Under the pieces are notes generated by a model. The model saw only the letters and a program-made list of their open reading frames with translations. It searched no databases and had not been told where the DNA came from. From Anaerolineae bacterium (GTDB taxonomy: Bacteria > Chloroflexota > Anaerolineae > UBA1429): DNA of 64,000 nt. How positions within the stretch are numbered: the stretch's first letter is position 1; each line of letters starts with the position of its first letter. A program made the translations under genes and the position numbers. The DNA is taken from assembly GCA_963675785.1 (NCBI GenBank), contig OY776562.1, positions 3,040,001-3,104,000 on the forward strand, given 5' to 3'. Below, piece by piece: positions 41,226 to 54,765 of this stretch.

Positions 41226-41339
41226 CCACTGAGGCTATTATACGGGATTCCGGCTTCCTTGCAAGTTATGCACTGACGGGTTGCTTTTCGCTGAGACGGT
41301 GATATGCTCTGCCCAGTATTGGGCTCAAGGAGATTGATA

Positions 41340-43349
41340 ATGTCTGAGAAATGCGAACGCGAACCGCTTCAGCTTCCTGAATCGTGGGACCCTGAAGCCA
41401 AACTATGTGCCAACTATACCGAATACGGCACGTTTCACGAATCGCGGCAAGGGGCTTCTCTAGCCGAGGCTTTGGTGGCCAATGGCACTGCGCAGGATAT
41501 CGCTCTGGCCCACGAGGTGCTCGAAGCGACCCTGATTTGCCAAGAGATGGATCCACGCGATCCTCACTATGGCAATTTCTACTGGATGGCTGAGGATACG
41601 GTAGTATTTGACCTCAATGCCGTCGAGTTTTGCCTTGAACACCTGATCCCAATGATGATTGAACATCGCGCTAGGCTGCAGCCATCTATGCAGGCACGTG
41701 TGCTGGAAGCGATACGTTTGGGATTGGATGAGATTCGTCGTCTTGATGTTCTGGTCGCCTATACCAATATTACTGCTTTGGACATTCTGAACACGTGTTT
41801 GGGCGGAGAACTACTGGGCGATGTAGAGATTGCCCAACGTGGCTATGCCAAACTGCAAGAGTTTATTGCTTTCAATGACCAAGGTGGCATACCGGCCGAA
41901 TACAATAGCCCCACGTATACGCGCGTAGCTCTAAAGTCCATGATGGGGCTGATATCTCTGGCGAAAGACAGTGCCACGCGTACTCGGGCCCATGCCCAGT
42001 TGTTGCGCTTGGCCGTAAGCGCCGGACTGCATTTGCATGAGGGTACTGGCCGCTGGGCTGCGCCGCACAGCCGTGCCTATCAGCCCTCGGTGGAATGCCG
42101 CGAGGCGCCAGAAGTTGAGCTGTTCGATGCCTGGATTGAAAAGGGCGATTTGCCGGTATGGTGTCGCGCTCTGTGGCAGGGCAATTCAGTGCCTCACGAA
42201 ATCTGGGAGAGCGTGGATTCTCGTGTAGGTGTAGGCCTGTCGACTTGTATGGATAAGACCTTTGCCCTGGGTGTAGGTTCTTTGGGCGAGGGCGGCCAGG
42301 CGGATTCTTGCATGGTTCACTATAGGCGAGAAAAACCTTGTGATGGAGTCTTGTACACGCGCTATCTGATCAATGATAAATGGCTTGGTGACACCTACCA
42401 TCCCACAGACCGCACCAAGTCGAGAAACCTTGCCGACGAGGGGATGTTCTACGGTGTGCAGAGCACGAACAAAGCTTTGGGTTTGTATCGGCCCCAGCAT
42501 GTTTCTGAGTGTAGTAGTGCCAAGGTCGCGCTCATTTGGACGCGTATTGAGGGTATTGACGAGATACGGGTGAATGGTGAGCTGGTGACGGCGCTTCCTT
42601 ATAACGTTCCCGAAAATAGCGTGGTTGGAATCGCTGCTGGAGAGACATATATGGCAGTTCGCCCTCTGTCTTGCACGGCTATGGGTCGCGAGACACCCGT
42701 GCGCTTGGTCGATATCAAGGGCGATCTGGTGCTCGAGATGTACAACTACAAGGGAGAAAGCAAGCGCTTTTGGGAATTGGGTTGGCCCGGGGCATTTTTC
42801 AAAGGACACCCAACCTGCGGCTTTTATCTTGAGGTCGGCAATTCTTCAGATTGTGCTGATCTGGCGGCTTTCTGCGAAATTGTGGCCAGTGGGCACGTGA
42901 CAGACACTATCGATGAACCCTTCACCTATGCAGGCGATCGACCGCGTGTGCGCACACTCGCTTACGAGCGAGAGGGCAAATCTTTTGGCATGAAGGTGGA
43001 CGTGATGGCCTGGCAGCAACTTTCACGTTGGATTGGTGACACCGAGTTGGGTATGCCCATGTTGGAATCACCCTATGCCCGACAGAATCGAGAGGGCTAT
43101 GTAGCCGTAGCAGATGCATCGTTGACATGCGCTGCTGCGCCAGCTTGGCTAGCAGCATTCCCTGAAAAGGGCATCTGGGCGGCAGGTGTCCACAATCAAA
43201 CCCCTTGTGAATTGACGCTGGAAACATCAGTCGGCCGTGTTCATGTTGCCCAATTTGCCATGGGCACCATCGAATGGGTTGATGGACAGGTATCCATCAA
43301 CGCGCTCGTGGCTGAGGGTATCAAAGTCACAGGGGCCAATCTGGCTTAA
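41340..43349 (+). CDS. Uncharacterised ~670 aa cytoplasmic protein (helical N-half, beta-rich C-half)
   Basis: Long ORF with AAGGAG RBS; motifs DLNAVEF, YTNI..LGGE, EYNSPTY, APHSRAY; family not identified with certainty. Confidence 0.7.
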   Translation: MSEKCEREPLQLPESWDPEAKLCANYTEYGTFHESRQGASLAEALVANGTAQDIALAHEVLEATLICQEMDPRDPHYGNFYWMAEDTVVFDLNAVEFCLEHLIPMMIEHRARLQPSMQARVLEAIRLGLDEIRRLDVLVAYTNITALDILNTCLGGELLGDVEIAQRGYAKLQEFIAFNDQGGIPAEYNSPTYTRVALKSMMGLISLAKDSATRTRAHAQLLRLAVSAGLHLHEGTGRWAAPHSRAYQPSVECREAPEVELFDAWIEKGDLPVWCRALWQGNSVPHEIWESVDSRVGVGLSTCMDKTFALGVGSLGEGGQADSCMVHYRREKPCDGVLYTRYLINDKWLGDTYHPTDRTKSRNLADEGMFYGVQSTNKALGLYRPQHVSECSSAKVALIWTRIEGIDEIRVNGELVTALPYNVPENSVVGIAAGETYMAVRPLSCTAMGRETPVRLVDIKGDLVLEMYNYKGESKRFWELGWPGAFFKGHPTCGFYLEVGNSSDCADLAAFCEIVASGHVTDTIDEPFTYAGDRPRVRTLAYEREGKSFGMKVDVMAWQQLSRWIGDTELGMPMLESPYARQNREGYVAVADASLTCAAAPAWLAAFPEKGIWAAGVHNQTPCELTLETSVGRVHVAQFAMGTIEWVDGQVSINALVAEGIKVTGANLA

Positions 43350-43467: not shown

Positions 43468-43710
43468 GGAGACCCAATCTCCGATATGGAACAAGTTTGT
43501 ACAGCTGGCTCTGGAGGGCTTCTGGCAAAGGCGCAGACCCTCAAAGTGTCGCATAGCTGTTCATCGCATATTGCGGCATCCGATTTTCTTGTGAGCTGTA
43601 CAGATACTTTGTTCCAAAAAGCACATTTGGCATTCATTCAAAATGGAATAGTACTATTCGAACGGACCATTGCGGACTGTACCAGGGAAAGCATGGTCCG
43701 TTCTGCATTT
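43468..43710 (+). other. Highly structured 5' leader (candidate cis-regulatory RNA)
   Basis: Long imperfect inverted repeat 43487-43506/43594-43616 enclosing two hairpins; 14-bp palindrome 43646-43659; 11-bp stem 43660-43670/43693-43703. Confidence 0.45.
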
Positions 43711-43729
43711 TTCAAGGGGGAAGATGCTC

Positions 43730-45607
43730 ATGTATTCCTATAGCGGCAGAGTTCTACATGTCGATGTTGGCACGCGTACTTCATGGGTGGAGCAGCTCGA
43801 TGAATCGCTCCTTAAAAAGCTGCTGGGAGGCGTGGGTTTGGCCACCTGGTTGGTTTACAAAAACACGCCCGCTGGTTGTGACCCGCTTGGCCCGGATAAC
43901 GCGCTCTGTTTTGCCTGTAGTGTGTTTGCTGGCACTACTATGCCGGTAGGCACCAAACATGCGGTGGCCAGCAAGTCACCCTTGACGGGTGTCATTGGCG
44001 ATTCGCTCTCTGGCAGCCACTTTTCTGAGGAGCTGCGCCGCGCCGGGTGGGATGGTATTGTCATCAAGGGGCAGGCGCCCGACTGGACCCTTTTGTTCAT
44101 TGATGATGACGATGTTCGCTTTCTCGAAGCTGGTGATTTGGTTGGCATGGGCTGTATGGGCACACAGCAGCGCGTGCGCGACTTGTTCGGCGATGAGAAC
44201 GTACGGGTGAGTTCCATCGGGCCGGCCGGCGAGAATTTGGTGCGTTTTGCTTCGATTGACAATGACGGCCGCCAAGTGGGTCGCACGGGCAATGGCACGG
44301 TGATGGGTAGCAAAAAGATCAAAGCCATTGCTTTGCGAGGCTCCAAGCCTGTCAGCGTGGCTGATCCCAAAGGTTTGCTGGCAGAGACCAAACGGCTCAT
44401 CCAAGTGGCACAAGGCCCGGGCACGTTCAAGTATCGTACGTTAGGTACCCCCGCCAACGTGCTGAATATGAACAAGATCGGCGTACTGCCCACACGAAAC
44501 TTTTCCGAGACGATTTTTGAACACGCCAACGAGATCAGTGGTGAATTCCTCCGCGACCATCTGTTGGTCAAAGAAGTGGCCTGTTCGGGCTGCCCTATCG
44601 CCTGTGAGCATTGGGCCGAGATCAAAGAGGGCCCCTACAAAGGCTCGATGATCGGTGTGGATTACGAACCCCTCTTCTCGCTGGGTTCCAACTGCGGCAT
44701 TGGCGATTTTGGCCCCATTGTGCACCTCATCGAAATGTGCGATGACCTGGGCATGGACGCCATGAGCGCCGGTGTGGTCATTAGTTGGGCTATGGAAGCT
44801 TTTGAACGGGGTGTATTTACTACCGAGGACACTGGCGGCTTGGAACTAAACTTTGGCAACGATGTGGCCGCCGTGGAAATTCTCAGACAAATTGCTTACC
44901 GTGAGGGATTGGGCGATCTATTGGCTGAGGGCGTCAAGCGCGCTTCAGAGCATACGGGCAAGGGCAGTGAGCACTATGCCATGCACATCAAGGGGCTAGA
45001 GATGCCTGGTTACGATGTGCGCAGCCTAAAGACCTTTGCCATGGGCCTGGCTGTGGGCACCCGCGGTGGCTGCCACAATCGCTCTCTGGCTTACGAGGCG
45101 GACATCAAGGGAGAGGTCGACCGTTTTACGGCGGATTCGAGCCGTGGCGCTATTGCCCGCGATAAAGAGAACTTTGCAGCCATCCTCGATTCGCTGGTTT
45201 TGTGCAAGTTCATCCGTAATGCCTTTGATGACTTTTACGAGGATGTGGCCCGCCTCTACAACATGGTCACAGGCCTTGATCTAACGGCGGCAGAGCTCAA
45301 GGCAGTAGGGGAGCGGGTTTGGAATCTGAAAAAGGCCTTTAACATTCGTGAGGGTTGGACGCGCGCTGACGACTGGCTGCCCGATCGTGTGCTCATGGAT
45401 CCGGTTCCTGATGGGCCATCCAAGGGCTCTTTTGTGACGGCGGACGAGCTCAATATGATGATCGATTCGTACTATGTGGCTCGTGGATGGACACCGGAAG
45501 GCTTGATCCCCCGCGAGAAACTGATTGAGTTGGGCCTTGGGGACATAGCCGACGACATTTGCCCAAGTTTGGTGGTAGCACCGGAACCTGCGGTCAAGGA
45601 GGCCTAG
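43730..45607 (+). CDS. Tungsten-dependent aldehyde:ferredoxin oxidoreductase (WOR/AOR family)
   Basis: KSPLTG, SIGPAGEN, VMGSKKIKA, CSGCPIAC + LVLCKF cluster ligands, DYE, DDLGMD, RGGCH. Confidence 0.95.
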   Translation: MYSYSGRVLHVDVGTRTSWVEQLDESLLKKLLGGVGLATWLVYKNTPAGCDPLGPDNALCFACSVFAGTTMPVGTKHAVASKSPLTGVIGDSLSGSHFSEELRRAGWDGIVIKGQAPDWTLLFIDDDDVRFLEAGDLVGMGCMGTQQRVRDLFGDENVRVSSIGPAGENLVRFASIDNDGRQVGRTGNGTVMGSKKIKAIALRGSKPVSVADPKGLLAETKRLIQVAQGPGTFKYRTLGTPANVLNMNKIGVLPTRNFSETIFEHANEISGEFLRDHLLVKEVACSGCPIACEHWAEIKEGPYKGSMIGVDYEPLFSLGSNCGIGDFGPIVHLIEMCDDLGMDAMSAGVVISWAMEAFERGVFTTEDTGGLELNFGNDVAAVEILRQIAYREGLGDLLAEGVKRASEHTGKGSEHYAMHIKGLEMPGYDVRSLKTFAMGLAVGTRGGCHNRSLAYEADIKGEVDRFTADSSRGAIARDKENFAAILDSLVLCKFIRNAFDDFYEDVARLYNMVTGLDLTAAELKAVGERVWNLKKAFNIREGWTRADDWLPDRVLMDPVPDGPSKGSFVTADELNMMIDSYYVARGWTPEGLIPREKLIELGLGDIADDICPSLVVAPEPAVKEA

Positions 45608-45609
45608 CC

Positions 45610-46125
45610 GTGGCAGTAACCCAGTATCAGCATATTATTTGTGACCCCGACAAGTGTATCGGCTGCAGGTTGTGTGAGTATGCTTGTTCAGCTACCAAGA
45701 CCAACGCTTTTGATGCGCCCATGTCACGCATTCGGGTGGTGCGCATTGAGCCCATTACCATGATTGCCATAAGCTGCCGGCTCTGTGCGGATGCTCCCTG
45801 CATTATCGCCTGCCCGCGGAACGCCTTGACGCGTTCTTCTGAGAACGGCACTATCATTGTGGATGTTGACAAGTGCGATGGTTGCGGGTGGTGCATTGAG
45901 GCCTGCGATTTCGGCGCCATGCTCCTCGACCCGGCTACAAAGACGGCGGCTGTGTGCGATTTGTGTGCCGATCAACCCGATGGCCCGCAGTGCGTGGCCT
46001 TTTGCCCCAAAGAAGCGCTGGTATTAGGCACGCCGGAGACGCTTCGCCAGCAGGCTCGGCGTGATGTGGTAAAGAAACTGTTTGATGAACTATCGACTGA
46101 TGGCCCACAGCAGGAGAAGCGATAG
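45610..46125 (+). CDS. 4Fe-4S dicluster electron-transfer subunit (AorA/CooF/HydN-like)
   Basis: CIGCRLCEYAC, CRLCADAPCIIACP, CDGCGWCIEAC, CDLC..PQCVAFCP; GTG start after AAGGAGG. Confidence 0.9.
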   Translation: MAVTQYQHIICDPDKCIGCRLCEYACSATKTNAFDAPMSRIRVVRIEPITMIAISCRLCADAPCIIACPRNALTRSSENGTIIVDVDKCDGCGWCIEACDFGAMLLDPATKTAAVCDLCADQPDGPQCVAFCPKEALVLGTPETLRQQARRDVVKKLFDELSTDGPQQEKR

Positions 46126-46128
46126 CGA

Positions 46129-48588
46129 ATGGAAGAACAGATCCGAGTTGGGGTGTATGTTTGCAGTTGTGGTTCAAACATCGGAAGTGTGGTCGACCCC
46201 AAGGTGTTGGCCGAATACGCCAGCGCGTTGCCCGATGTGGTGCTCACCCGTGATAACCTGTACATGTGCGGTGAGCCGGGTCAGAAAATGGTGCAAAAGG
46301 ACATTGTCGAGCACAACCTGAATCGCGTGGTGATTGCGGCCTGCAGTGTGCGCATGCACGAGCCTACTTTTAGGGCTTGCGTGGCCAAGGCGGGGCTCAA
46401 CCCCTTCCTTATGGAGATGGCCAACATCCGCGAGCAGGACACCTGGGTGCACGGCCACGATCATGAGGGAGCCCTGGCCAAGGCCAAGGACCTGATTGCG
46501 GCGGCAGTGGCCAAGGTACGCTATGCCCACCCGCTGCAAACCATCACCGTGCCAGTAACCAAGGCCGCGCTCGTGGTGGGCGGCGGTGTTGCAGGTATTA
46601 GTTCGGCGCTAGACCTCGCCGATATGGGGATCAAGACCTATCTGTTGGAAAGGGAGCTGAGCATTGGCGGCAAGATGGCTCAGCTGAACAAGACCTTTCC
46701 AACGATGGATTGCTCCATTTGAATACTTGCACCAAAGATGGTTGACGCGGCGCGTCACCCCAACATTGAAATACTGAGCTATTCGGAACTACTACGACTT
46801 GACGGCTATATCGGCAATTTCCGCGCCGAGATCGTCCGCAAGCCGCGCTATGTCATTGCGTCCAACTGCACCGGCTGTGGCGAGTGTGCTGAGGCCTGCC
46901 CCATTGAGGTGCCCAACGCCTTTGATGTGGATATTGCCCCGCGCAAAGCCATAGATGTGCCCCATGCCCAGGCGGTGCCGCTCATCTATGCCATTGATAT
47001 GGATAACTGTATCCAGTGCTATCAATGTGTAACGGCCTGTGGCGAGCGTGATGCCATTGATTTCTCTCAGGAACCCGAAATCATCAATCTCGATGTCGGT
47101 GCCATTGTCACTGCTACGGGGTTTGACGTCTTTGATCCACAAGTGATTCCCGAATACGGCTATAGCCACTATCCCAACGTCATCACGGCGATGGAATTGG
47201 AACGACTAGCCAACTCGGCGGGGCCCACGATTGGTCGCCTGGTGCGCCCTTCGGACGGCAAACCACCCGAGAGCCTGGCGTTGGTTCTCTGCGTTGGCTC
47301 GCGTGACAAGCGCTATAACGAATATTGCTCGGGCTTTTGCTGCATGTATTCCATCAAGAACGCCATTCTGCTCAAACAAGCCAACCCCGAGATGGACATC
47401 ACCATCTTTTACATGGATATCCGTACGCCTTCTAAAGGATATGAAGAGTTTTACAATCGCGCCCGAGCTGCTGGCATTCGCTTTGTGCGCGGTCGGCCGG
47501 CTCAGATCACCGAAGATCCCACCACACATAACCTGTTTATTGAGGCCGAGGATCAGGAATTGGGCGAGGTCATTGAACTGGAGACCGAAATGGCCGTTTT
47601 AGCTTCGGCAGCCATTCCATCCGAAGGCACTGATGAGCTAGCTTCTCAACTGACCCTTTCGCGCAGCCCCAGTGGCTTTTTCATGGAGTATCACCCCAAG
47701 CTGCGTCCGGTCGATTCGCCCACGGATGGCATCTTTTTGGCGGGCGCGGCCCAAGGGCCCAAGGACATTCCCGCCAGTGTGGCTCAGGCCAGCGCTGCAG
47801 CCTCACGTGCAGCACGGGTACTTTCTTCAGCTACCTGGGAGATCGAGCCCATCATTGCCGAGGTTGACCCCAAGGTGTGCATCAGCGCCCAGGGCAAAAA
47901 GTGTGGCATTTGCGCTACGGCCTGTCCTTACGGTGCTATCATCGTTGAGCCTGGCCAACCTGCGGTAGTTACCCAAGCCAAATGTCATGGCTGTGGTGGC
48001 TGTGTGGCTGAATGCCCGCACAATGCCATCACCCAGCATCACTTTACCGATCCGCAATTGGCGGCAGAGTTGGAAGCACTGCTCGATGACAAACCAGAAG
48101 AGAAAATTCTGGTGTTCATGTGCAACTGGTGTAGCTATGGCGGTGCTGATAACGCCGGCAGCAGCCACTTTGAATACACTTCGGCTTCACGAGGCCTGCG
48201 GGTGATGTGTTCGGCGCGTATGGATCAGGACTTTATTCTGGAGGCTTTCCGCCGAGGCGCTGGCATGGTACTGGTTTCGGGTTGCCACCCGCAAGACTGC
48301 CACTATATCACTGGCCAGCAAGTAGCGGCCCAGCGTTTTGATCGTATTCCGCGTACACTGGAGCGCGCTGGCATCAACCCCGAGCGTTTCAGAGTGGAGT
48401 GGATTTCGGCGGCCGAGGGCGAAAAGTATGCCCGTGTGCTCAATGAGATGCAGGTCAAACTGGATTCGCTTGACCCCGAGGTGCTGCGGGAAGAGAATCG
48501 TACGGCTGAGCCTTCGTTAACCTCGCGGCTCAAGCGCTGGAAGTTGGTGCCCGAGATGGCCGCTATTCTAGAGGCGACCAAATCATGA
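46129..48588 (+). CDS. hdrA: HdrA-MvhD fusion, selenoprotein (UGA at codon 198, 46720-46722); 819 aa
   Basis: ORFs 46129-46722 and 46738-48588 are in frame across a single TGA in KTFPTMDCSI-U-ILAPKM; GGGVAG FAD motif, CVGSRD..YCSGFCCMYSIK, two ferredoxin domains, C-terminal MvhD (CNWCSY, CSAR, GCHPQDCHY). Confidence 0.9.
46739..46760 (+). promoter_or_regulatory. Bacterial SECIS-like hairpin
   Basis: GG-(T bulge)-TGACGC-GGC-GCGTCA-CC; apical loop starts with G about 27 nt after the UGA. Confidence 0.65.
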
Positions 48589-49568
48589 TCAAATCGACCG
48601 CCTTTGATAAATCGTTTCCCAAAGAGGTGATGGCTGAGCCGGGCGGCGAGCAGTTGGTGGTTTGCTCGTCGTGCGGCACTTGCGCGGCGGCCTGTGTGGT
48701 GCGTCAGCAAAACCCTGAATACAACCCGCGGCGCATACTGCGTATGGCGGCGCTGGGGTTACGGGAGAAGGTACTTTCCTCCGAAGAGATTTGGCAATGC
48801 TCGGCTTGCGATGATTGTTATCCTCGCTGCCCCAAGGGTATCCATATCTCGGAAGTGATGGGTGCCATCCGGCAGATTGCCATTCGCGAGGGCTATACAC
48901 GGCCCGGCGCGACGGCCCAGGTGAACGTGAACCGCTGCGTGGCCTGTGGCATGTGTGCGGCGGCCTGCCCCTATGAAGCTATCAAACTGGAAGAAATCAT
49001 GATTCGCCGGTCACCCAAGCGAGTAGCCCAAGTAGACCCGAACCTTTGCGCGGGGTGTGGTATTTGCAACGCCGTGTGTCCCTCTGGCTCGATCTCGCTG
49101 GAGGGTTATACAGACCGTGAAGTACACGACGTGCTGTTGGAGGCCATGCCGCCCGATTGGTCGGGTCGGTTGCTGGTCATCATTTGCAATTGGAGCCTCC
49201 ACGCCGGTTCTGATATCACCTTTGCCGAAAACCCTCCCGAGGGTGTGCAGGTCATTCGTGTATCCTGTTCGGGACGAGTGACGCCCACCTTTGTGACTAC
49301 TGCTTTCGACCGTGGCGCTGAGGGCGTGTTAGTGGTGGGTTGCGACGAGGAAGAATGCCATTATCGTGAGGGCAGCCGCATCGCCAGCGGTCGGCTTCAG
49401 GTGTTGGGCTCACTGTTGGACATGATGGGCGTGGATGCCGCGCGCGTGCGCTTTACACGGCTTACCTCGCTGGACCGTGGCAAGTTGCCGACCATGGCGC
49501 AAGAGCAGCAAGCGCAACTGTCCGAATTAGGGCCGTTGGATTGGAAGGGTACCGGGGGGCGCTCATGA
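48585..49568 (+). CDS. HdrC-like + 2x[4Fe-4S] ferredoxin + MvhD/FlxD-like fusion
   Basis: CSSCGTCAAAC..IWQCSACDDCYPRCPKGI (HdrC); CVACGMCAAACP, CAGCGICNAVCP; ICNWS..SCSGRV..GCDEEECHY (MvhD). Confidence 0.85.
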   Translation: MIKSTAFDKSFPKEVMAEPGGEQLVVCSSCGTCAAACVVRQQNPEYNPRRILRMAALGLREKVLSSEEIWQCSACDDCYPRCPKGIHISEVMGAIRQIAIREGYTRPGATAQVNVNRCVACGMCAAACPYEAIKLEEIMIRRSPKRVAQVDPNLCAGCGICNAVCPSGSISLEGYTDREVHDVLLEAMPPDWSGRLLVIICNWSLHAGSDITFAENPPEGVQVIRVSCSGRVTPTFVTTAFDRGAEGVLVVGCDEEECHYREGSRIASGRLQVLGSLLDMMGVDAARVRFTRLTSLDRGKLPTMAQEQQAQLSELGPLDWKGTGGRS

Positions 49569-50440
49569 GCGATCGTGGAAATCATCAGGATGCCATGCGC
49601 GCTGCCCAGACATTGGCTGAGATGCAACCCCTGCTGCGCGAAACGGCCCATCACTTGTTGAGCGAGGGACAGGTTCATGGTGTGTTGGGCTTTTGTGAGA
49701 CGGTCACGCCCGGTGTGGTGACGCCTTGTCTCCTTCGCCAACCCAGCGAATGCCAAAAGCTGGTGCTGAATACGGCTTGCTATCACAATCTGGCAGGCTA
49801 TTTGGTGGGCCCCGATGGTCTGCTCAAGGGCGCCCGTGCCGAGCGTAACGCGCCACTAGCTATCGTGGCTAGGCCAGGGGTATTGCGCACGCTGGTGGTG
49901 TTGCTGCAAGAGCAACAGATTGTGCGTGAGGACATTGTCGTGTTGGGCATTACCGACAACACGCCCATTGGCTTAAAGCCAGACGTGCTCTTGGGCGAAC
50001 TCGATCGCGATTTTGTGGGCGGCTCGCAACACGAGGAATTGATTGCTCGCCTGCAGGCCATGAGTACAGCGGAGCGAGCGGCTTGGTGGAACGCTCGCTT
50101 TGCCCAGTGTGTGCGCTGCTATGCCTGCCGACAGGTTTGCCCGCTCTGCTATTGCGAACAGTGTGTGGTGGATGAAAACCTGCCCCAGTGGATCGACAAG
50201 AGCGACTCGGTGGCCTCTAATCGCACCTTTTTGCTGGTGCGGGCCATGCACCTCATGGGGCGCTGCGTGAACTGTGGCGCTTGTGAGGCGGCCTGTCCCA
50301 TGCATTTGCCTTTGGGAGTGTTGACCACGTTGTTGGGCAAAGAGGTACAAACAACTCTGGCCTTTGTGCCGGGTTCGGATGGGACGCAGGCGCCGGCTGC
50401 TCTGGGCTGCCGCATTGTTGCTGGTCGCGGAGAGGAATAG
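49565..50440 (+). CDS. FlxC-like iron-sulfur protein
   Basis: FrhB/FdhB-like N-terminus (LLSEGQVHGVLGF..CYHNLAGYL); CVRCYACRQVCPLCYCEQC; RAMHLMGRCVNCGACEAACP. Confidence 0.8.
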   Translation: MSDRGNHQDAMRAAQTLAEMQPLLRETAHHLLSEGQVHGVLGFCETVTPGVVTPCLLRQPSECQKLVLNTACYHNLAGYLVGPDGLLKGARAERNAPLAIVARPGVLRTLVVLLQEQQIVREDIVVLGITDNTPIGLKPDVLLGELDRDFVGGSQHEELIARLQAMSTAERAAWWNARFAQCVRCYACRQVCPLCYCEQCVVDENLPQWIDKSDSVASNRTFLLVRAMHLMGRCVNCGACEAACPMHLPLGVLTTLLGKEVQTTLAFVPGSDGTQAPAALGCRIVAGRGEE

Positions 50441-50442
50441 CC

Positions 50443-51492
50443 ATGGCGAACAAAATGCTGCGTCTTGCCGATGTCCCTGCCTTGGTAGAGGCAATGTTGG
50501 CCGAGGCCATCGTCGTTGGGCCTTCGTTGAGCGAGCAGCTTTCTGATGAGGCGCCGGCGGCGCTCTATAACGAAATCCATGCGCCACACGACCTGTGGTT
50601 GGATTCTGGTCGCCCGGCCAAGAGCCTCAAAGAGTTCTTTTTCCCGCCACGAGAGGTATTGTTCACCTATCGCCTTAGCGAGACAGGCGTTGAGGTGACT
50701 GAGCCCGAGCTAGAGACCAGGCCGCGCATTGTCTTTGGCGCCCGTCCCTGCGATGCCGCCGCTTTGCCGGTGATGGATCAGGTGTTCGGTTGGGGTGAAC
50801 AAGATAACACCTATTTTTATCGGCGGGAGCATACTACCATTGTTACCGTGGCCTGTGATGCCCCTGAGAACACCTGCTTTTGCACCTCCTTGGGTGGCTC
50901 GCCCACGGGTACGGCTGGCGCTGATGTGCTGCTGACGCGCCTTGGCGATGTGTACCATGTGAGTGTCCTTTCGGACAAGGGTGCCCAACTGGTTGCTGCC
51001 TACCCTGATTATTTCAGGGAGGCGAGCCCAGCACTGGATCTGGCCCAAGAAGACACTGCGCGAGCGCTAGAAGAGCAAATCGTGCGCAAGATTGATCCTG
51101 CGCCCATTCGCGATATCGCCTTTGACGACCCGCTCTGGCAGGAGCTGACTCAGCAGTGTGTGGATTGCGGGGTGTGCACCTTCCTTTGCCCCACTTGCCA
51201 TTGTTTCGATATACAGGATGAGGGCAACGAGGCCGAGGGCCAACGTGTGCGCCTGTGGGATTCCTGCGCTTTTCGTGATTTCACGCGTATGACAGTAGCT
51301 CAGCCACGCCCAGAGCATTACCGGCGCTATCGACAGCGTATTATGCACAAGTTCCAATACTATCCCACCAATTTCGATGCCGCCTTGTGCGTGGGCTGTG
51401 GCCGTTGCGTGGCCTCTTGCCCGGCTGGGGTAGATATTACCGAGATCATCTCGCGGTTGGGCGCAAGCCTGGCAGCGCGTGAAGGAGAATAG
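50443..51492 (+). CDS. FlxB-like (AsrA/HydB family) iron-sulfur protein
   Basis: SLKEFFFP, FGARPCD, CFCTSLG, CVDCGVCTFLCPTCHCF, RLWDSC, HKF, CVGCGRCVASCP. Confidence 0.88.
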   Translation: MANKMLRLADVPALVEAMLAEAIVVGPSLSEQLSDEAPAALYNEIHAPHDLWLDSGRPAKSLKEFFFPPREVLFTYRLSETGVEVTEPELETRPRIVFGARPCDAAALPVMDQVFGWGEQDNTYFYRREHTTIVTVACDAPENTCFCTSLGGSPTGTAGADVLLTRLGDVYHVSVLSDKGAQLVAAYPDYFREASPALDLAQEDTARALEEQIVRKIDPAPIRDIAFDDPLWQELTQQCVDCGVCTFLCPTCHCFDIQDEGNEAEGQRVRLWDSCAFRDFTRMTVAQPRPEHYRRYRQRIMHKFQYYPTNFDAALCVGCGRCVASCPAGVDITEIISRLGASLAAREGE

Positions 51493-51501
51493 GCGCTCAT
51501 C

Positions 51502-52344
51502 ATGCACGATCATGGCACACTCACACCTACAGTGATGACGGTTCAGCGCATTGTCGAAGAGACGCCCGATGTCAAAACCTTTCGACTGGCTCCGGTGGAT
51601 GTTGCGGATGGTAGCTGGCGCCACGCTTTTGATTCGGGCCAGTTTGGCCTGTTCTCGGTGTTTGGCCAGGGTGAGGCGCCCTTTGGGCTGGCCAGCTCGC
51701 CAACCCAAGTAGGCTATATCGAATGCTCTATCAAACGCCAGGGCAAGGTCACCGATGCCTTTCATGCGCTGGCTGAGGGTGACCAGGTGGGTTATCGCGG
51801 TCCCTATGGTCGGGGGTTTCCCTATGATGAACTGGTGCGCAAGAATGTGGTCTTTGTGGGGGGTGGCATTGGCTTGGCGCCCTTGCGTTCTCTCATCTGG
51901 AATTGCCTCGACAATCGCGCCGATTTCGGTGATTTGATCGTGGTTTACGGCGCACGTAGCACTGGCGATCTGGTGTACAAGCGCGAACTTGATCAGTGGT
52001 TGGCTCGTTCCGATATGCAAACGGTGTTAACGGTTGACCCCGGTGGACAGGATGAAGCCTGGCGTGGGAATGTTGGCTTTGTGCCTGCCGTTCTTGAAGA
52101 GGTTGCGCCTACGGTCGAGAATACCTTGGTGGTGACTTGCGGGCCGCCCATTATGATCAAATTTGTGGTGCAATCGCTGCTCAAGCTGGGCTTTGCGCCC
52201 GAGCAGATTATCACCAGCCTGGAAATGAAAATGAAATGCGGCATCGGCAAGTGCGGCCGCTGCAACATTGGGCATTTGTACGTCTGCAAGGATGGTCCCG
52301 TGTTTAGCTATGCTGAACTCAAGGATCTGCCGGACGAGTATTAG
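51502..52344 (+). CDS. FlxA-like (AsrB/HydG family) FAD/NAD-binding [2Fe-2S] oxidoreductase
   Basis: GQF...GEAP, RGPYGRGF, GGGIGLAP, YGARS, CGPPIM, MKCGIGKCGRC..CKDGPVF. Confidence 0.92.
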   Translation: MHDHGTLTPTVMTVQRIVEETPDVKTFRLAPVDVADGSWRHAFDSGQFGLFSVFGQGEAPFGLASSPTQVGYIECSIKRQGKVTDAFHALAEGDQVGYRGPYGRGFPYDELVRKNVVFVGGGIGLAPLRSLIWNCLDNRADFGDLIVVYGARSTGDLVYKRELDQWLARSDMQTVLTVDPGGQDEAWRGNVGFVPAVLEEVAPTVENTLVVTCGPPIMIKFVVQSLLKLGFAPEQIITSLEMKMKCGIGKCGRCNIGHLYVCKDGPVFSYAELKDLPDEY

Positions 52345-52365: not shown

Positions 52366-53265
52366 ATGAGTCGAGGAACGACACTCAAAACGAGTAATGC
52401 GGCCTATACTGAATTGCTTCGTCCTATGATCACTCGCCGCTACAGTCTGATCATCGATCATGAGCTCTGTTGCGGCTGCGATACCTGCGAGATCGTCTGT
52501 CCGCGCAAAGCCATCTCGCTTTCAGCGGCGGTGGTCGAGAATGGGCATGTGGTCGTCAAGGCCCGGGTCGAGCTGGATGAAACCAAATGCAGTTTTTGTG
52601 GTGAGTGCGCTGCGATTTGCCCAACCTGCGCCTTTCGCCTTACAGTAAATGGCGAGCCAGAGAATCCAGTGCTCAAGGCCAGCGTGTGGCCGCTCTTTCG
52701 CAAGCGCGTCAGCATAGATCAGGGCATTCTCTCTGAACATCTCGATGTGGACTATATCGAGCTTTGCCCGTCGGGAGCTATCTCGGCGGATGTGGAATGT
52801 GATGCCTCGGGTACTGTGACGGCGGTCAGCGATGTGCAGATCGACCGGCAGAGCTGCTTCAACTGCACGCGCTGCATGTTCAAGGGGCCAGAGGGTGGTT
52901 TCACCATCGAAAAGCCTTATGAGGGGCGCATCTTTTTGAAGGCAACCTTATGCCCTGAAGGCTGCCAGGCTTGTTCAGAGGTTTGCCCCAGCCATGCGCT
53001 CTATCTCCGTGATGGCGTGGTGGCGTTGGAAGCGCAATTCTGTATTTACTGCAAGGCCTGCACGCGTGTTTGCCCGGCTGAGGGTGCGCTGGAGGTTCGC
53101 CGCACCGGCTATCGCCATATGCCCATCGAATCGGGGGCTTGGCGTGTGGCGCTGGAAAAGCTGGTAGATATTCAGGCTGTCAAGCGCGAGTTGGGCCAAA
53201 AGACGCAGCAAAAAAGGCGCCAGGCTGTGGCCCAGCGCTTGCTTGGTGAAATGAAAGAAGAATAG
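52366..53265 (+). CDS. FwdF-like polyferredoxin
   Basis: Motifs CCGCDTCEIVCP, CSFCGECAAICP..LTVNGE, ELCP, CFNCTRC, EKPYEGRI, CPEGCQACSEVCP, CIYCKACTRVCP. Confidence 0.75.
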   Translation: MSRGTTLKTSNAAYTELLRPMITRRYSLIIDHELCCGCDTCEIVCPRKAISLSAAVVENGHVVVKARVELDETKCSFCGECAAICPTCAFRLTVNGEPENPVLKASVWPLFRKRVSIDQGILSEHLDVDYIELCPSGAISADVECDASGTVTAVSDVQIDRQSCFNCTRCMFKGPEGGFTIEKPYEGRIFLKATLCPEGCQACSEVCPSHALYLRDGVVALEAQFCIYCKACTRVCPAEGALEVRRTGYRHMPIESGAWRVALEKLVDIQAVKRELGQKTQQKRRQAVAQRLLGEMKEE

Positions 53266-53277
53266 AGGGCTGCTGAT

Positions 53278-54765
53278 TTGCCCAAGGCAAATGAACTCGT
53301 AAAAGCACTAGATTGCCAATTGCTGGATTGGCACGATCAGGATATTACGGGAGTGGTTTGCGATTCGCGCCAAGCGGCGCCAGGCGCTTTGTATGTAGCC
53401 TATGGCGGCGTGAGCGTGGATGGGCATACCTATGCTGCTGCTGCGCATCATGCCGGGGCAGTCGCTTTTGTGCTCGAGCACGACATGCCCGAACTGGTCG
53501 GCCAACCGCGAGCCATTGTGCGTAGCGGTCGTGAGGCCTTTGCCCTGCTACAGGCAGCCCTACATGGCTACCCGGGGCGCCACCTCAAAGTCATTGGTGT
53601 AACCGGCACGGACGGTAAGACGACGACCTCGCGCCTCATTGCCAGCATTTTGTCTGCTGCTGGCAAGCAGGTTGGCACAGTAGACACCGTGGGCGCAACT
53701 ATCGCCGGTAAGGAAACCCCCACTGGCTTTCACACCACAACTCCTGATGCCCCCGAACTGCAAGAGTATTTGGCGCAAATGGTGGTTGCTGGCGTCGAGT
53801 ATGCGGTCATCGAAACCACTTCGCACGGCCTGGCCCAGCACCGCGTTACCGGGTCGGAATACGATGTCGCCGTGATGACCAACATCACTCACGAGCATTT
53901 GGATTTTCACGGCACCTTTGAGAACTATCGCGACGCCAAGGCCATGCTCTTTCGCTCGCTTTCGACCTCGGCGCACAAAGAGGGTATTGCCAAAACGGCG
54001 GTGCTTAACCGCGACGATCCCTCGTACACCTATTTGGCGGCTTTTTCTGCAGAGCGGCAGTTTGCTTATGGCCTGGAACTGGGCGATGTGACTGCCTCGG
54101 ATATTCGTTGCGCAGTGGACGGGCTGGACTTTATCCTCAATCTGCCCGATGAGCAGATAGCCATTCATTCGCCGCTGGTGGGACGCTATAACATCAGCAA
54201 CATTCTGGCGGCAGCAACGGCTGCTTGGTCGTTGGAAATTCCTGGGGATGTTATTGCCAAGGGCGTGGCGGCGGTGGGGCATATCGAGGGGCGCTGGAAT
54301 GTGATCAATTGCGGCCAACCGTTTTCGGTAGTAGTGGATTTTGCCCACACGCCCAATGCGCTGCTTCAGGTCTTAACTACCGCCCGTGATCTCACCTCAG
54401 GGCGAGTTGCTGTGGTGTTTGGCTGCGCCGGTCTACGTGATAGGACCAAGCGCCCTGCCATGGGCAAGATAGCCAGCGATCTGGCCGATTTGGTGGTGCT
54501 GACAGCCGAGGACCCACGAACGGAATCCCTCGATGAGATCATCGAGCAGATTGCAGCCGGGTTTTCGAATCCTAACACCCTCTGCTGGCGCGAGCCCGAC
54601 AGGGCAAAAGCAATCGCCCGGGCCCTGGGATGGGCTAGACCGGGCGATCTTGTGATTGTGACAGGCAAAGGCCACGAACAATCGATGTGCTTTGGCACTG
54701 AGGAAACACCTTGGAGTGACAAAGAAACGGTCCTCAGCGCGCTTGCTTCATTGGGTTATTGCTAA
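53278..54765 (+). CDS. murE: UDP-MurNAc-L-Ala-D-Glu:diamino acid ligase
   Basis: DSR, GVTGTDGKTT, HTTTP, ETTSHG, TNITHEHLDFH, VDFAHTP, EDPR, GKGHE. Confidence 0.93.
   Translation: MPKANELVKALDCQLLDWHDQDITGVVCDSRQAAPGALYVAYGGVSVDGHTYAAAAHHAGAVAFVLEHDMPELVGQPRAIVRSGREAFALLQAALHGYPGRHLKVIGVTGTDGKTTTSRLIASILSAAGKQVGTVDTVGATIAGKETPTGFHTTTPDAPELQEYLAQMVVAGVEYAVIETTSHGLAQHRVTGSEYDVAVMTNITHEHLDFHGTFENYRDAKAMLFRSLSTSAHKEGIAKTAVLNRDDPSYTYLAAFSAERQFAYGLELGDVTASDIRCAVDGLDFILNLPDEQIAIHSPLVGRYNISNILAAATAAWSLEIPGDVIAKGVAAVGHIEGRWNVINCGQPFSVVVDFAHTPNALLQVLTTARDLTSGRVAVVFGCAGLRDRTKRPAMGKIASDLADLVVLTAEDPRTESLDEIIEQIAAGFSNPNTLCWREPDRAKAIARALGWARPGDLVIVTGKGHEQSMCFGTEETPWSDKETVLSALASLGYC

Follow-up and report, generated by a model that had tools for sequence, protein, structure and literature searches.

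An HdrC-ferredoxin-MvhD fusion protein as a candidate replacement for HdrBC in a tungsten aldehyde oxidoreductase operon of Anaerolineae

HdrA, a subunit of heterodisulfide reductase (Hdr), is the best-studied flavin-based electron-bifurcating core, and its role in bacteria without the heterodisulfide is addressed here for one lineage. In the Desulfovibrio FlxABCD-HdrABC system, as Ramos and coworkers are said to have reported in 2015, FlxD, a protein of the MvhD type, is thought to feed HdrA, with HdrBC carrying the high-potential branch. In the canonical wiring according to PMC13518236, electrons reach the flavin via the [2Fe-2S] cluster of MvhD/VhuD; the high-potential branch leads from HdrA via HdrC to HdrB, and the low-potential branch connects the ferredoxin domain inserted in HdrA, by way of polyferredoxins (VhuB, FwdF), with the Fwd tungstopterin. 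In the class II benzoyl-CoA reductase (BCRII), as described in a preprint (10.64898/2026.04.10.717634), the low-potential branch ends at BamBC of the aldehyde:ferredoxin oxidoreductase (AOR) family. We analyzed a stretch of 64,000 nucleotides, here called the window, which corresponds to positions 3,040,001 to 3,104,000 of contig OY776562.1 in the 3.2-Mb genome of Anaerolineae bacterium GCA_963675785.1 (UBA1429). It contains an operon in which a tungsten-type AOR and an HdrA with a C-terminal MvhD domain are encoded together with a NAD(P)H unit (the Fe-S protein P299 and HydB-like and HydG-like subunits) and with a protein of 327 amino acids (aa) that joins an HdrC-like core, a ferredoxin, and a second MvhD domain (positions 48585-49568, forward strand; open reading frame [ORF] confirmed). 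We propose, with a probability of roughly two in three, that this fusion replaces HdrBC and would wire the HdrC port of HdrA to a swappable redox unit, so that NAD(P)+/NAD(P)H, H+/H2, or CO2/formate may stand in the place of the heterodisulfide, whose branch is the high-potential one in methanogens.

Domain architecture and occurrence of the fusion protein

The tri-domain make-up of the protein, proposed in an initial annotation of this DNA, was borne out by Pfam, NCBIfam, BLASTP, and PDB matches and by structure prediction. Pfam recognized FlpD/MvhD (PF02662) at residues 197-316 with 99.5 bits, against a cut-off of 22.3, and two distinct 4Fe-4S dicluster regions at residues 26-87 and 112-172. 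Searches of the PDB by sequence retrieved MvhD (7bkb_F, 3.6e-24) and HdrC (8rvu_c, 2.5e-18, query residues 3-110 against residues 12-117 of the 185 in the chain), and the NCBIfam profile of HdrA2, NF040770, matched residues 107-318 through its positions 568-774 of 777 (E value of 4.7e-43). BLASTP aligned residues 111-317 with residues 577-783 of the adjoining HdrA-MvhD (32% identity, E value of 1e-30); the second and third domains of the fusion therefore constitute a copy of the unit of ferredoxin and MvhD found at the C terminus of HdrA. The AlphaFold2 (AF2) model, built on 36 relatives, was confident (predicted local distance difference test score of 90.1, predicted template modeling score of 0.85). 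A Foldseek search with this model retrieved MvhD (5odh_D, TM score of 0.82) and also the C terminus of HdrA, and HdrC was aligned across merely ~107-112 of its 184 residues; the HdrC domain of the fusion lacks anything equivalent to the C-terminal third of that protein.

Cysteine conservation was read from an alignment of 36 sequences for the fusion and from 41 sequences for HdrA and the WorS-like subunit. All 16 cysteines for four [4Fe-4S] clusters in the fusion are invariant or at least 90% conserved, including the two HdrC-type CX2CX2CX3C motifs (C27/C30/C33/C37 and C72/C75/C78/C82). In the MvhD domain, C201, C228, C253, and C258 are invariant and, by elimination, would be the ligands of the [2Fe-2S] cluster. 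The fusion is most likely a five-cluster electron wire composed of four [4Fe-4S] clusters and one [2Fe-2S] cluster. The motifs quoted in the initial annotation are present, namely, CNWS, CSGR, and GC..CHY in the fusion and CNWC and CSAR in HdrA, which has its own C-terminal MvhD. The idea that CNWS instead of CNWC sets the window protein apart did not hold, however, since this position is variable among 80 relatives (Ser in 40, Cys in 32, Asn in 3, Thr in 1, and 4 unmatched by the motif), whereas the other four cysteines are invariant. The residue concerned is the fifth, non-ligand cysteine, i.e., the second Cys of CxWC, which is Ser in the window fusion; the MvhD fused to HdrA retains it in 41/41 sequences. 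By elimination, the variable position is probably equivalent to the non-ligand cysteine near the MvhD cluster which, according to the BCRII preprint (10.64898/2026.04.10.717634), may serve two-electron delivery to the flavin and is a selenocysteine (Sec) in BamF.

A protein search with the fusion returned 179 clusters at an E value of ≤1e-10. Among the 120 matches listed, lengths ranged from 308 to 381 aa and identities from 42 to 63%, and the named sources were Anaerolineae or Chloroflexi; these relatives carry the name "hydrogenase iron-sulfur subunit," which is also the current label of the window protein. A scan with one genome per species identified 229 stretches encoding relatives, a number that may include split forms because the patterns used sat in the HdrC part. 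In the best 80 of these 229 stretches, which form the locus set of this study, the match extends into the MvhD domain in every case, and the records are labeled as Chloroflexota or a lineage thereof (78; Pelolinea in the case of L071) or as "uncultured bacterium" (2). We also sampled the order of the window, which comprises one family (42 genomes, 24 genera). Forty of these 42 genomes match from residue 7 or earlier to at least residue 304; of the two exceptions, one has a match cut by a contig end and the other an HdrA-like match only. The fusion, initially described as unusual, is thus so with respect to textbook Hdr but is the rule in this lineage. A phylum-wide sample of 400 additional genomes, with five candidates scored per genome, contained no further full-length fusion, a weak result that is no evidence of absence.

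Genomic context of the fusion and absence of HdrB

The hdrA gene is currently annotated as broken in two, since an in-frame TGA (positions 46720-46722, codon 198, motif DCSIU) separates ORFs 46129-46722 and 46738-48588. Among 67 related loci, 66 have TGA at the equivalent codon and 1 has TGC, and a tRNA-Sec is encoded at genome positions 231154-231251; we therefore consider HdrA a selenoprotein. In the alignment with HdrA of M. thermolithotrophicus (5odc_A), which spans residues 3-654, the Sec (motif C-S-I-U) falls on Cys197; residues 657-789 form the MvhD domain. NF040770 (cut-off of 1100 bits) is the top NCBIfam match of both halves, which had to be scored separately owing to the Sec codon and reached 288.3 and 731.9 bits. 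Equivalents of E356 and K409, which are key to bifurcation (PMC12054007), are present in the window protein and invariant in the aligned HdrA sequences. Judging from the full-length match to 5odc_A and from these two residues, HdrA looks able to bifurcate. Its stop codon overlaps the start codon of the fusion as ATGA.

The initial annotation had noted two MvhD modules and no HdrB in the operon, and both statements are confirmed by our data. The genome encodes two FlpD domains in total, in HdrA-MvhD and in the fusion, and Pfam and NCBIfam scans of the operon detected no CCG domain. The sole CCG protein of the genome has 640 aa (Fer4 and two CCG domains) and is encoded ~39 kb downstream, beside cobalt/ECF-type transporter genes. 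An inspection of this protein (G000:C1:3127922-3129844; L001:5923-7845) revealed an N-terminal region of ~260 residues without a Pfam match, followed by one dicluster domain and the two CCG domains. When the 80 loci were searched by tblastn and phmmer using two CCG proteins as queries, an adjacent HdrB was found in one (L037). In the family sample, PF02754 (CCG) was detected in 9 and undetected in 33 of the 42 genomes, and in 3 of the 26 with a completeness of ≥90% and a contamination of ≤5%; a match near the fusion occurs only in genome G426, which harbors the L037 locus. A search with a CCG-motif regular expression retrieved 6 ORFs, namely, the true HdrB of L037, three located inside polyferredoxin genes, one (in L042) without a Pfam match, and one (in L080) of 99 aa. 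The presence of HdrB in 1/80 loci and of CCG domains in 9/42 family genomes indicates that the fusion works without HdrB as a rule; a routine co-occurrence with an adjacent HdrB, which would speak against a rewired HdrC, was not found.

We then inspected the gene context of the 80 loci by tblastn, using as queries the window proteins and representatives drawn from the loci. HdrA is encoded 5' of the fusion on the same strand in 76 loci and directly adjacent to it in 68; three of the remaining four loci are cut by a contig start. MvhD is fused to HdrA in 65 loci and encoded separately in 7, the other 8 allowing no assignment. Of the 57 loci whose upstream sequence exceeds 5.6 kb, 49 contain AOR. 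In contrast to this constant part, the genes that follow the fusion vary. (i) In 62 loci, the next genes encode the small and then the large subunit of a [NiFe] hydrogenase. (ii) In 7 loci, a P299-like gene is followed by a formate dehydrogenase (FDH) gene with an in-frame TGA. (iii) In 5 loci, including L068, where the fusion gene is in two pieces, P299 and the HydB/HydG-like pair follow. (iv) The contig ends in 4 loci, and nothing is encoded on that strand in 2. Pfam confirmed the hydrogenase type for L013, L045, L063, and L054 and the FDH type for L003 and L031. The large subunit of L045, the sole locus searched against the PDB, is of the Mvh type (9sw2_F, 2.7e-116; 5odc_F, 3e-113). The order of fusion, small subunit, large subunit, and polyferredoxin follows what we take to be the mvhDGAB order.

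In the FDH-type loci, P299 relatives are encoded before FdhA. Both halves of the catalytic subunit were found in 14 loci, and in 13 of these (L003:10128-12266 and 12 further loci) a single in-frame TGA interrupts it; the enzyme is probably a selenocysteine enzyme. Six loci without AOR contain HdrA, a separate MvhD, and an FdhB-like protein in that order; in five of them, Sec-FdhA and then the fusion follow, whereas in L051 the fusion comes directly after the FdhB-like gene and Sec-FdhA lies downstream of hydrogenase genes. Hydrogenase genes follow the fusion in 4 of these 6 loci. As single cases, in L028 (L028:10001-15354), hydrogenase genes and then P299 and a HydB-like gene are located downstream of the fusion, where the contig ends, and in L054 (L054:9454-9894), a gene of the PD-(D/E)XK nuclease family and other DNA are inserted between AOR/WorS and hdrA.

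A split form is present in another family of the same class. In two of its genomes (L082 in G076 and L083 in G148), an HdrC-ferredoxin gene of ~186 aa, corresponding to residues 1-184, is followed by a separate MvhD gene; the operon order is AOR, WorS, Sec-HdrA-MvhD, HdrC-ferredoxin, MvhD, P299, HydB, HydG, and polyferredoxin. A two-domain match was obtained for 6 of the 9 sampled genomes of this family. The split form shows the MvhD part to be a module that is joined to the HdrC-ferredoxin part and located toward the NAD(P)H unit.

The features of the operon are compiled in Table 1. The AOR, whose true start is probably ~20 codons within the ORF, has as its best PDB match the AOR of P. furiosus (1aor, 3.8e-121, full length) and also matches the class IV WorL 9mqx_D (9e-105). 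An assignment as BamB of benzoyl-CoA reductase was rejected, given that 4z3w was matched with merely 5.3e-53 over residues 21-439. The WorS-like subunit further matches WOR5-S (6x6u_B) and AorA (8c0z_C), and its 16 invariant cysteines correspond to four clusters. Residues ~182-289 of P299 match FdhB of the solved Fdh-MvhD-Hdr complexes (9t1s_M, 3.7e-20; 7bkb_E, 4.1e-17); an Atlas search with P299 retrieved generic Fe-S clusters and nothing more specific. A murE-like Mur ligase gene (positions 53278-54765) begins 13 bases past the polyferredoxin gene and is the neighbor in 31/80 loci; its retention in many relatives suggests a stable chromosomal position and vertical inheritance. Directly 5' of the operon is an ORF of 681 aa (positions 41304-43349, forward strand). 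We did not count it in the system because it has no Pfam or NCBIfam match and no tblastn counterpart in the 80 loci.

Table 1. Features of the operon, with positions in the window
Feature	Position	Strand	Supporting data
Tungsten-type AOR (WorL/AOR)	43670..45607	+	Pfam AFOR_N 2.3e-68, AFOR_C 1.9e-128
WorS-like small subunit, four [4Fe-4S] clusters	45559..46125	+	Best PDB match 9mqx_E, 4.7e-25
HdrA-MvhD (probably HdrA2 type), Sec at codon 198	46129..48588	+	5odc_A, 4.3e-250
Fusion domain 1: HdrC-like core, 2x[4Fe-4S]	48585..48914	+	Residues 1-110; NCBIfam, PDB sequence match, Foldseek
Fusion domain 2: 2x[4Fe-4S] ferredoxin, homologous to HdrA C-terminal ferredoxin	48915..49109	+	Pfam, NCBIfam, BLASTP; 8 invariant Cys
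Fusion domain 3: MvhD/FlpD [2Fe-2S], Ser at fifth-cysteine position (CNWS)	49140..49568	+	Pfam, PDB, Foldseek
P299, Fe-S protein	49541..50440	+	C-terminal part resembles FdhB C terminus
HydB/AsrA-like Fe-S subunit (sulfhydrogenase beta type)	50443..51492	+	Fer4_22; NF040833 8.4e-45; PDB 9nez_B 2.1e-39
HydG/AsrB-like FAD/NAD(P)H-binding [2Fe-2S] subunit (sulfhydrogenase gamma-like)	51502..52344	+	NAD_binding_1, DHODB_Fe-S_bind; PDB 9nez_C 2.3e-56
FmdF/FwdF-like polyferredoxin	52366..53265	+	NF042909 4e-35; PDB 7bkb_K 5.9e-39, 5t5i_F 6.3e-30

Proposed wiring and alternative explanations

In the wiring that we propose, the HdrC end of the fusion would occupy the port of Sec-HdrA-MvhD that is normally held by HdrC, in place of HdrBC. 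Its MvhD end would dock an interchangeable redox unit, which would be the NAD(P)H unit in the window and, in relatives, mostly an Mvh-type [NiFe] hydrogenase and in some cases a Sec-containing FDH. We argue for the position at the HdrC port from the constancy of the core of HdrA and fusion, the shortened HdrC, the lack of HdrB, the exchange of the downstream unit, and the existence of a split form. The resemblance of the P299 C terminus to FdhB of the solved Fdh-MvhD-Hdr complexes fits a docking of the NAD(P)H unit. The HdrC-ferredoxin-MvhD wire together with its proposed wiring is the best explanation of the data as a whole, and we hold it to be probable on balance. The comparative evidence (partner swap, split form, and HdrB in 1/80 loci) thus sustains the earlier suggestion that HdrC is rewired to a second MvhD docking an Flx-type unit, with NAD(H) replacing the heterodisulfide, but not what was suggested for AOR. 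That the HdrA-fused MvhD faces AOR had been read from gene order alone, and an opposite placement is at least as good in view of the solved tungsten complexes and of the co-occurrence of AOR with the polyferredoxin.

This co-occurrence was tabulated for 45 loci with long flanks. Both genes are present in 39 of them (40 with L054, where AOR is further upstream, behind the insertion) and neither in 4, a polyferredoxin alone occurs in 1, and AOR alone in none; as these are kin loci, the table is suggestive and no test. Hydrogenase genes are retained in 3 of the 4 loci that lack both, and the polyferredoxin thus follows AOR and not the hydrogenase. AOR and the four-cluster WorS would then be located on the low-potential branch of HdrA, connected via the FmdF/FwdF-like polyferredoxin, and free ferredoxin would exchange electrons at the C-terminal ferredoxin/MvhD end of HdrA. 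We favor this placement of AOR because the polyferredoxin is FmdF/FwdF-like and tracks AOR, because it corresponds to that in both solved tungsten-Hdr complexes, and because it respects the canonical order of potentials. The complex would couple aldehyde/acid (lowest potential), ferredoxin (middle), and NAD(P)H (highest). In one direction, aldehyde and NAD(P)H would reduce ferredoxin, and in the reverse, a ferredoxin-driven acid reduction would be pulled by NAD(P)+ reduction. The standard potential of the aldehyde/acid couple is ~-580 mV. A value of ~-500 mV in the cell is given in PMC13328260, and values of ~-500 mV for ferredoxin, -414 mV for H2, and ~-280 mV for NADH are given in PMC9304861. 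This complete wiring, with AOR on the low-potential branch, NAD(P)H entering via the fusion, and ferredoxin at the C-terminal end of HdrA, is tentative and falls somewhat short of an even chance in our estimate.

A number of observations weigh against the proposed role of the fusion or against parts of this wiring. (i) The NCBIfam HdrC profile TIGR03290 matched residues 26-107 with 88 bits, below its cut-off of 160, and the match spans just positions 3-83 of 144, i.e., the ferredoxin-like core alone; QmoC reaches nearly the same score (1.6e-19). (ii) In L030, the fusion has no adjacent HdrA, and L032 has kept the polyferredoxin with no AOR within 7 kb. (iii) In L037 (= L084, G426:C129), the fusion coexists with a normal HdrBC in the order HdrC, HdrB, a 1136-aa HdrA with a GltD/NfnB-like insert, separate MvhD, fusion, P299, HydB, and HydG; the genome concerned holds a second copy of the fusion. 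(iv) Gene order alone cannot tell which MvhD touches which partner, and we infer physical docking and the direction of electron flow from sequence comparisons. (v) The HdrA-fused MvhD has no encoded partner in the favored wiring, where ferredoxin is assumed in this role. (vi) The 80 loci are from kin genomes of a single phylum, and the counts represent non-independent events.

Among the alternatives, one in which the aldehyde is the electron donor is the most serious, although we consider it somewhat less likely than the favored wiring. AOR/WorS would feed the HdrA-fused MvhD, the canonical point of entry to the flavin, and one electron would pass via the fusion to NAD(P)+, H+, or CO2. The other would reach ferredoxin or the polyferredoxin by way of the ferredoxin domain inserted in HdrA. 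A complex of this kind would be the Hdr-built equivalent of class IV tungsten oxidoreductases (WOR), which reduce ferredoxin and NAD+ together, a reaction known from AmWOR1 and ElWOR1 (PMC13328260). It agrees with the gene order AOR-WorS-HdrA-MvhD and with the AOR-less loci, which place the separate MvhD beside the FdhB-like gene and FdhA, and hence the donor on that port, and the fusion beside the hydrogenase. The conservation of the fifth cysteine also points in this direction, since it is kept in the HdrA-fused MvhD and variable in the fusion, and such a cysteine has been described for two-electron delivery to the flavin in the BCRII preprint. Both acceptors would lie at or above the potential of the donor, however, so that no uphill step would be driven; the tracking of AOR by the polyferredoxin would be left unexplained; and in both solved Hdr-type complexes that have a tungsten enzyme, as far as they are described in these sources, the latter is on the low-potential branch.

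This last point is shared by a less probable explanation, in which the MvhD of the fusion is an ordinary one that connects whichever unit is present (hydrogenase, FDH, or NAD(P)H unit), as a mid-potential donor, directly with the flavin entry of HdrA, while AOR receives low-potential electrons and reduces acids in the manner of BCRII and Fwd. The HdrC-like and ferredoxin domains would then deliver electrons elsewhere, either to some high-potential acceptor or to the polyferredoxin. The pairing of MvhD with a hydrogenase and the order of fusion, small subunit, large subunit, and polyferredoxin are as in methanogens, and acid reduction requires electrons below the potential of ferredoxin, which is how the solved tungsten-Hdr complexes are described to operate. 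Nevertheless, neither the operon nor its conserved neighborhood encodes a high-potential acceptor, the upstream 681-aa ORF not being conserved; HdrA has its own MvhD at the entry position in 65/80 loci; and if NAD(P)H were the donor, a very oxidizing second acceptor would be required. The least likely of the explanations is that no bifurcation takes place and that HdrA and the fusion simply act as a linear wire which connects aldehyde oxidation with the formation of H2, formate, or NAD(P)H. By standard potentials, aldehyde oxidation is exergonic with the H2-, formate-, and NAD(P)H-forming acceptors, and the absence of HdrB is compatible with such a wire. Yet HdrA is of full length, and its inserted ferredoxin domain, E356 and K409 at the flavin site, and the Sec in a CxxC-like motif are all conserved, as is the polyferredoxin, which amounts to more machinery than a plain wire needs.

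Returning to the fusion as a substitute for HdrBC, a wire ending in an MvhD adaptor would provide a concrete answer for one lineage to the question of how HdrA operates without the heterodisulfide, the "high-potential" partner being a plug-in hydrogenase, FDH, or NAD(P)H unit. A more far-reaching version, which we regard as doubtful, is an HdrA-built tungsten AOR complex of an undescribed class without heterodisulfide or thiol chemistry, in which electrons of the aldehyde (via the polyferredoxin) and of NAD(P)H, H2, or formate (via the fusion) would meet at the flavin and reduce ferredoxin. If true, the ferredoxin yield per aldehyde would be doubled, and the second donor would be modular and exchanged between lineages. 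Anaerolineae are abundant fermenters of digesters and sediments, and the reaction would bear on their balance of H2, formate, NAD(P)H, and ferredoxin.

Comparison with known systems

A literature search did not reveal any account of an HdrC-ferredoxin-MvhD fusion, nor of an Anaerolineae operon that combines AOR with HdrA and Mvh/Flx, although preprint supplements may hold such clusters. The nearest precedent is a 2021 preprint, in which Anaerolinea group 3c hydrogenases are mentioned as preceded by Hdr genes and a "hydrogenase Fe-S subunit," which, in that account, were not dissected. Five WOR classes were distinguished in 2026 (PMC13328260), where the sole Hdr-linked member given is benzoyl-CoA reductase; its main text mentions neither Chloroflexota nor an Hdr-linked aldehyde WOR, and its supplements may hold such clusters.

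With the methanogen complexes MvhAGD-HdrABC and FdhAB-MvhD-HdrABC(-Fmd/Fwd) (5odc, 7bkb, 8rvu, 9sw6), the window operon shares a full-length HdrA that has Sec or Cys at one and the same position, the fold of MvhD, the core of HdrC, and a polyferredoxin of the FmdF/FwdF kind, and its relatives share the Mvh-type hydrogenase or the FDH and FdhB-like protein. It differs from them in that HdrB and a heterodisulfide site are missing, of HdrC only the core is left, which is joined to a second ferredoxin and MvhD, two MvhD modules are present, the tungsten enzyme is an aldehyde oxidoreductase and not a formylmethanofuran dehydrogenase, and the host is a bacterium. As in FlxABCD-HdrABC, a NAD(P)H flavoprotein, HydB/HydG-like subunits, an MvhD-type adaptor, and HdrA are combined in one operon. 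Unlike in that system, the NAD(P)H unit would be tied to the HdrC-derived arm, HdrB is missing, and HdrC exists just as the core of the fusion, which corresponds to the "inverted" topology of the initial annotation.

The AOR-type WorL and the four-cluster WorS are common to the operon and to the class IV WOR (WorLS and WorABC; AmWOR1 and ElWOR1; 9mqx), in which aldehyde oxidation is tied to ferredoxin and pyridine nucleotide (PMC13328260). The coupling module of class IV is the Bfu/NuoEF-like WorABC, whereas that of the window operon would be HdrA-MvhD and the fusion; Pfam and NCBIfam detected no Complex1_51K/NuoF-like protein among the operon genes. The class II benzoyl-CoA reductase, Bam[(BC)2DEFGHI]2, is described as similar in that a tungsten subunit of the AOR family, together with its Fe-S partner, is coupled to a flavoprotein of the HdrA type and an adaptor of the MvhD type, and its high-potential branch likewise ends elsewhere than at the heterodisulfide (10.64898/2026.04.10.717634). 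In the window operon, in contrast, the catalytic subunit is AOR and not of the BamB type, HdrA is single and not doubled as in BamE, the adaptor is fused to an HdrC core, and BamD (CCG) and BamGHI are missing. Finally, an HdrA with a C-terminally fused MvhD is also reported for HdrA2B2C2 of Methanosarcina acetivorans (PMC5296606; type Ia HdrA, PMC12054007), where the partners given are HdrB2C2 and F420H2, whereas the window operon is without HdrB and has a second MvhD on its HdrC-derived protein. Taken together, an Hdr/Mvh/Flx-type complex that has an HdrB-less, MvhD-terminated HdrC arm and is tied to a tungsten AOR would be new among Hdr-type bifurcating complexes.

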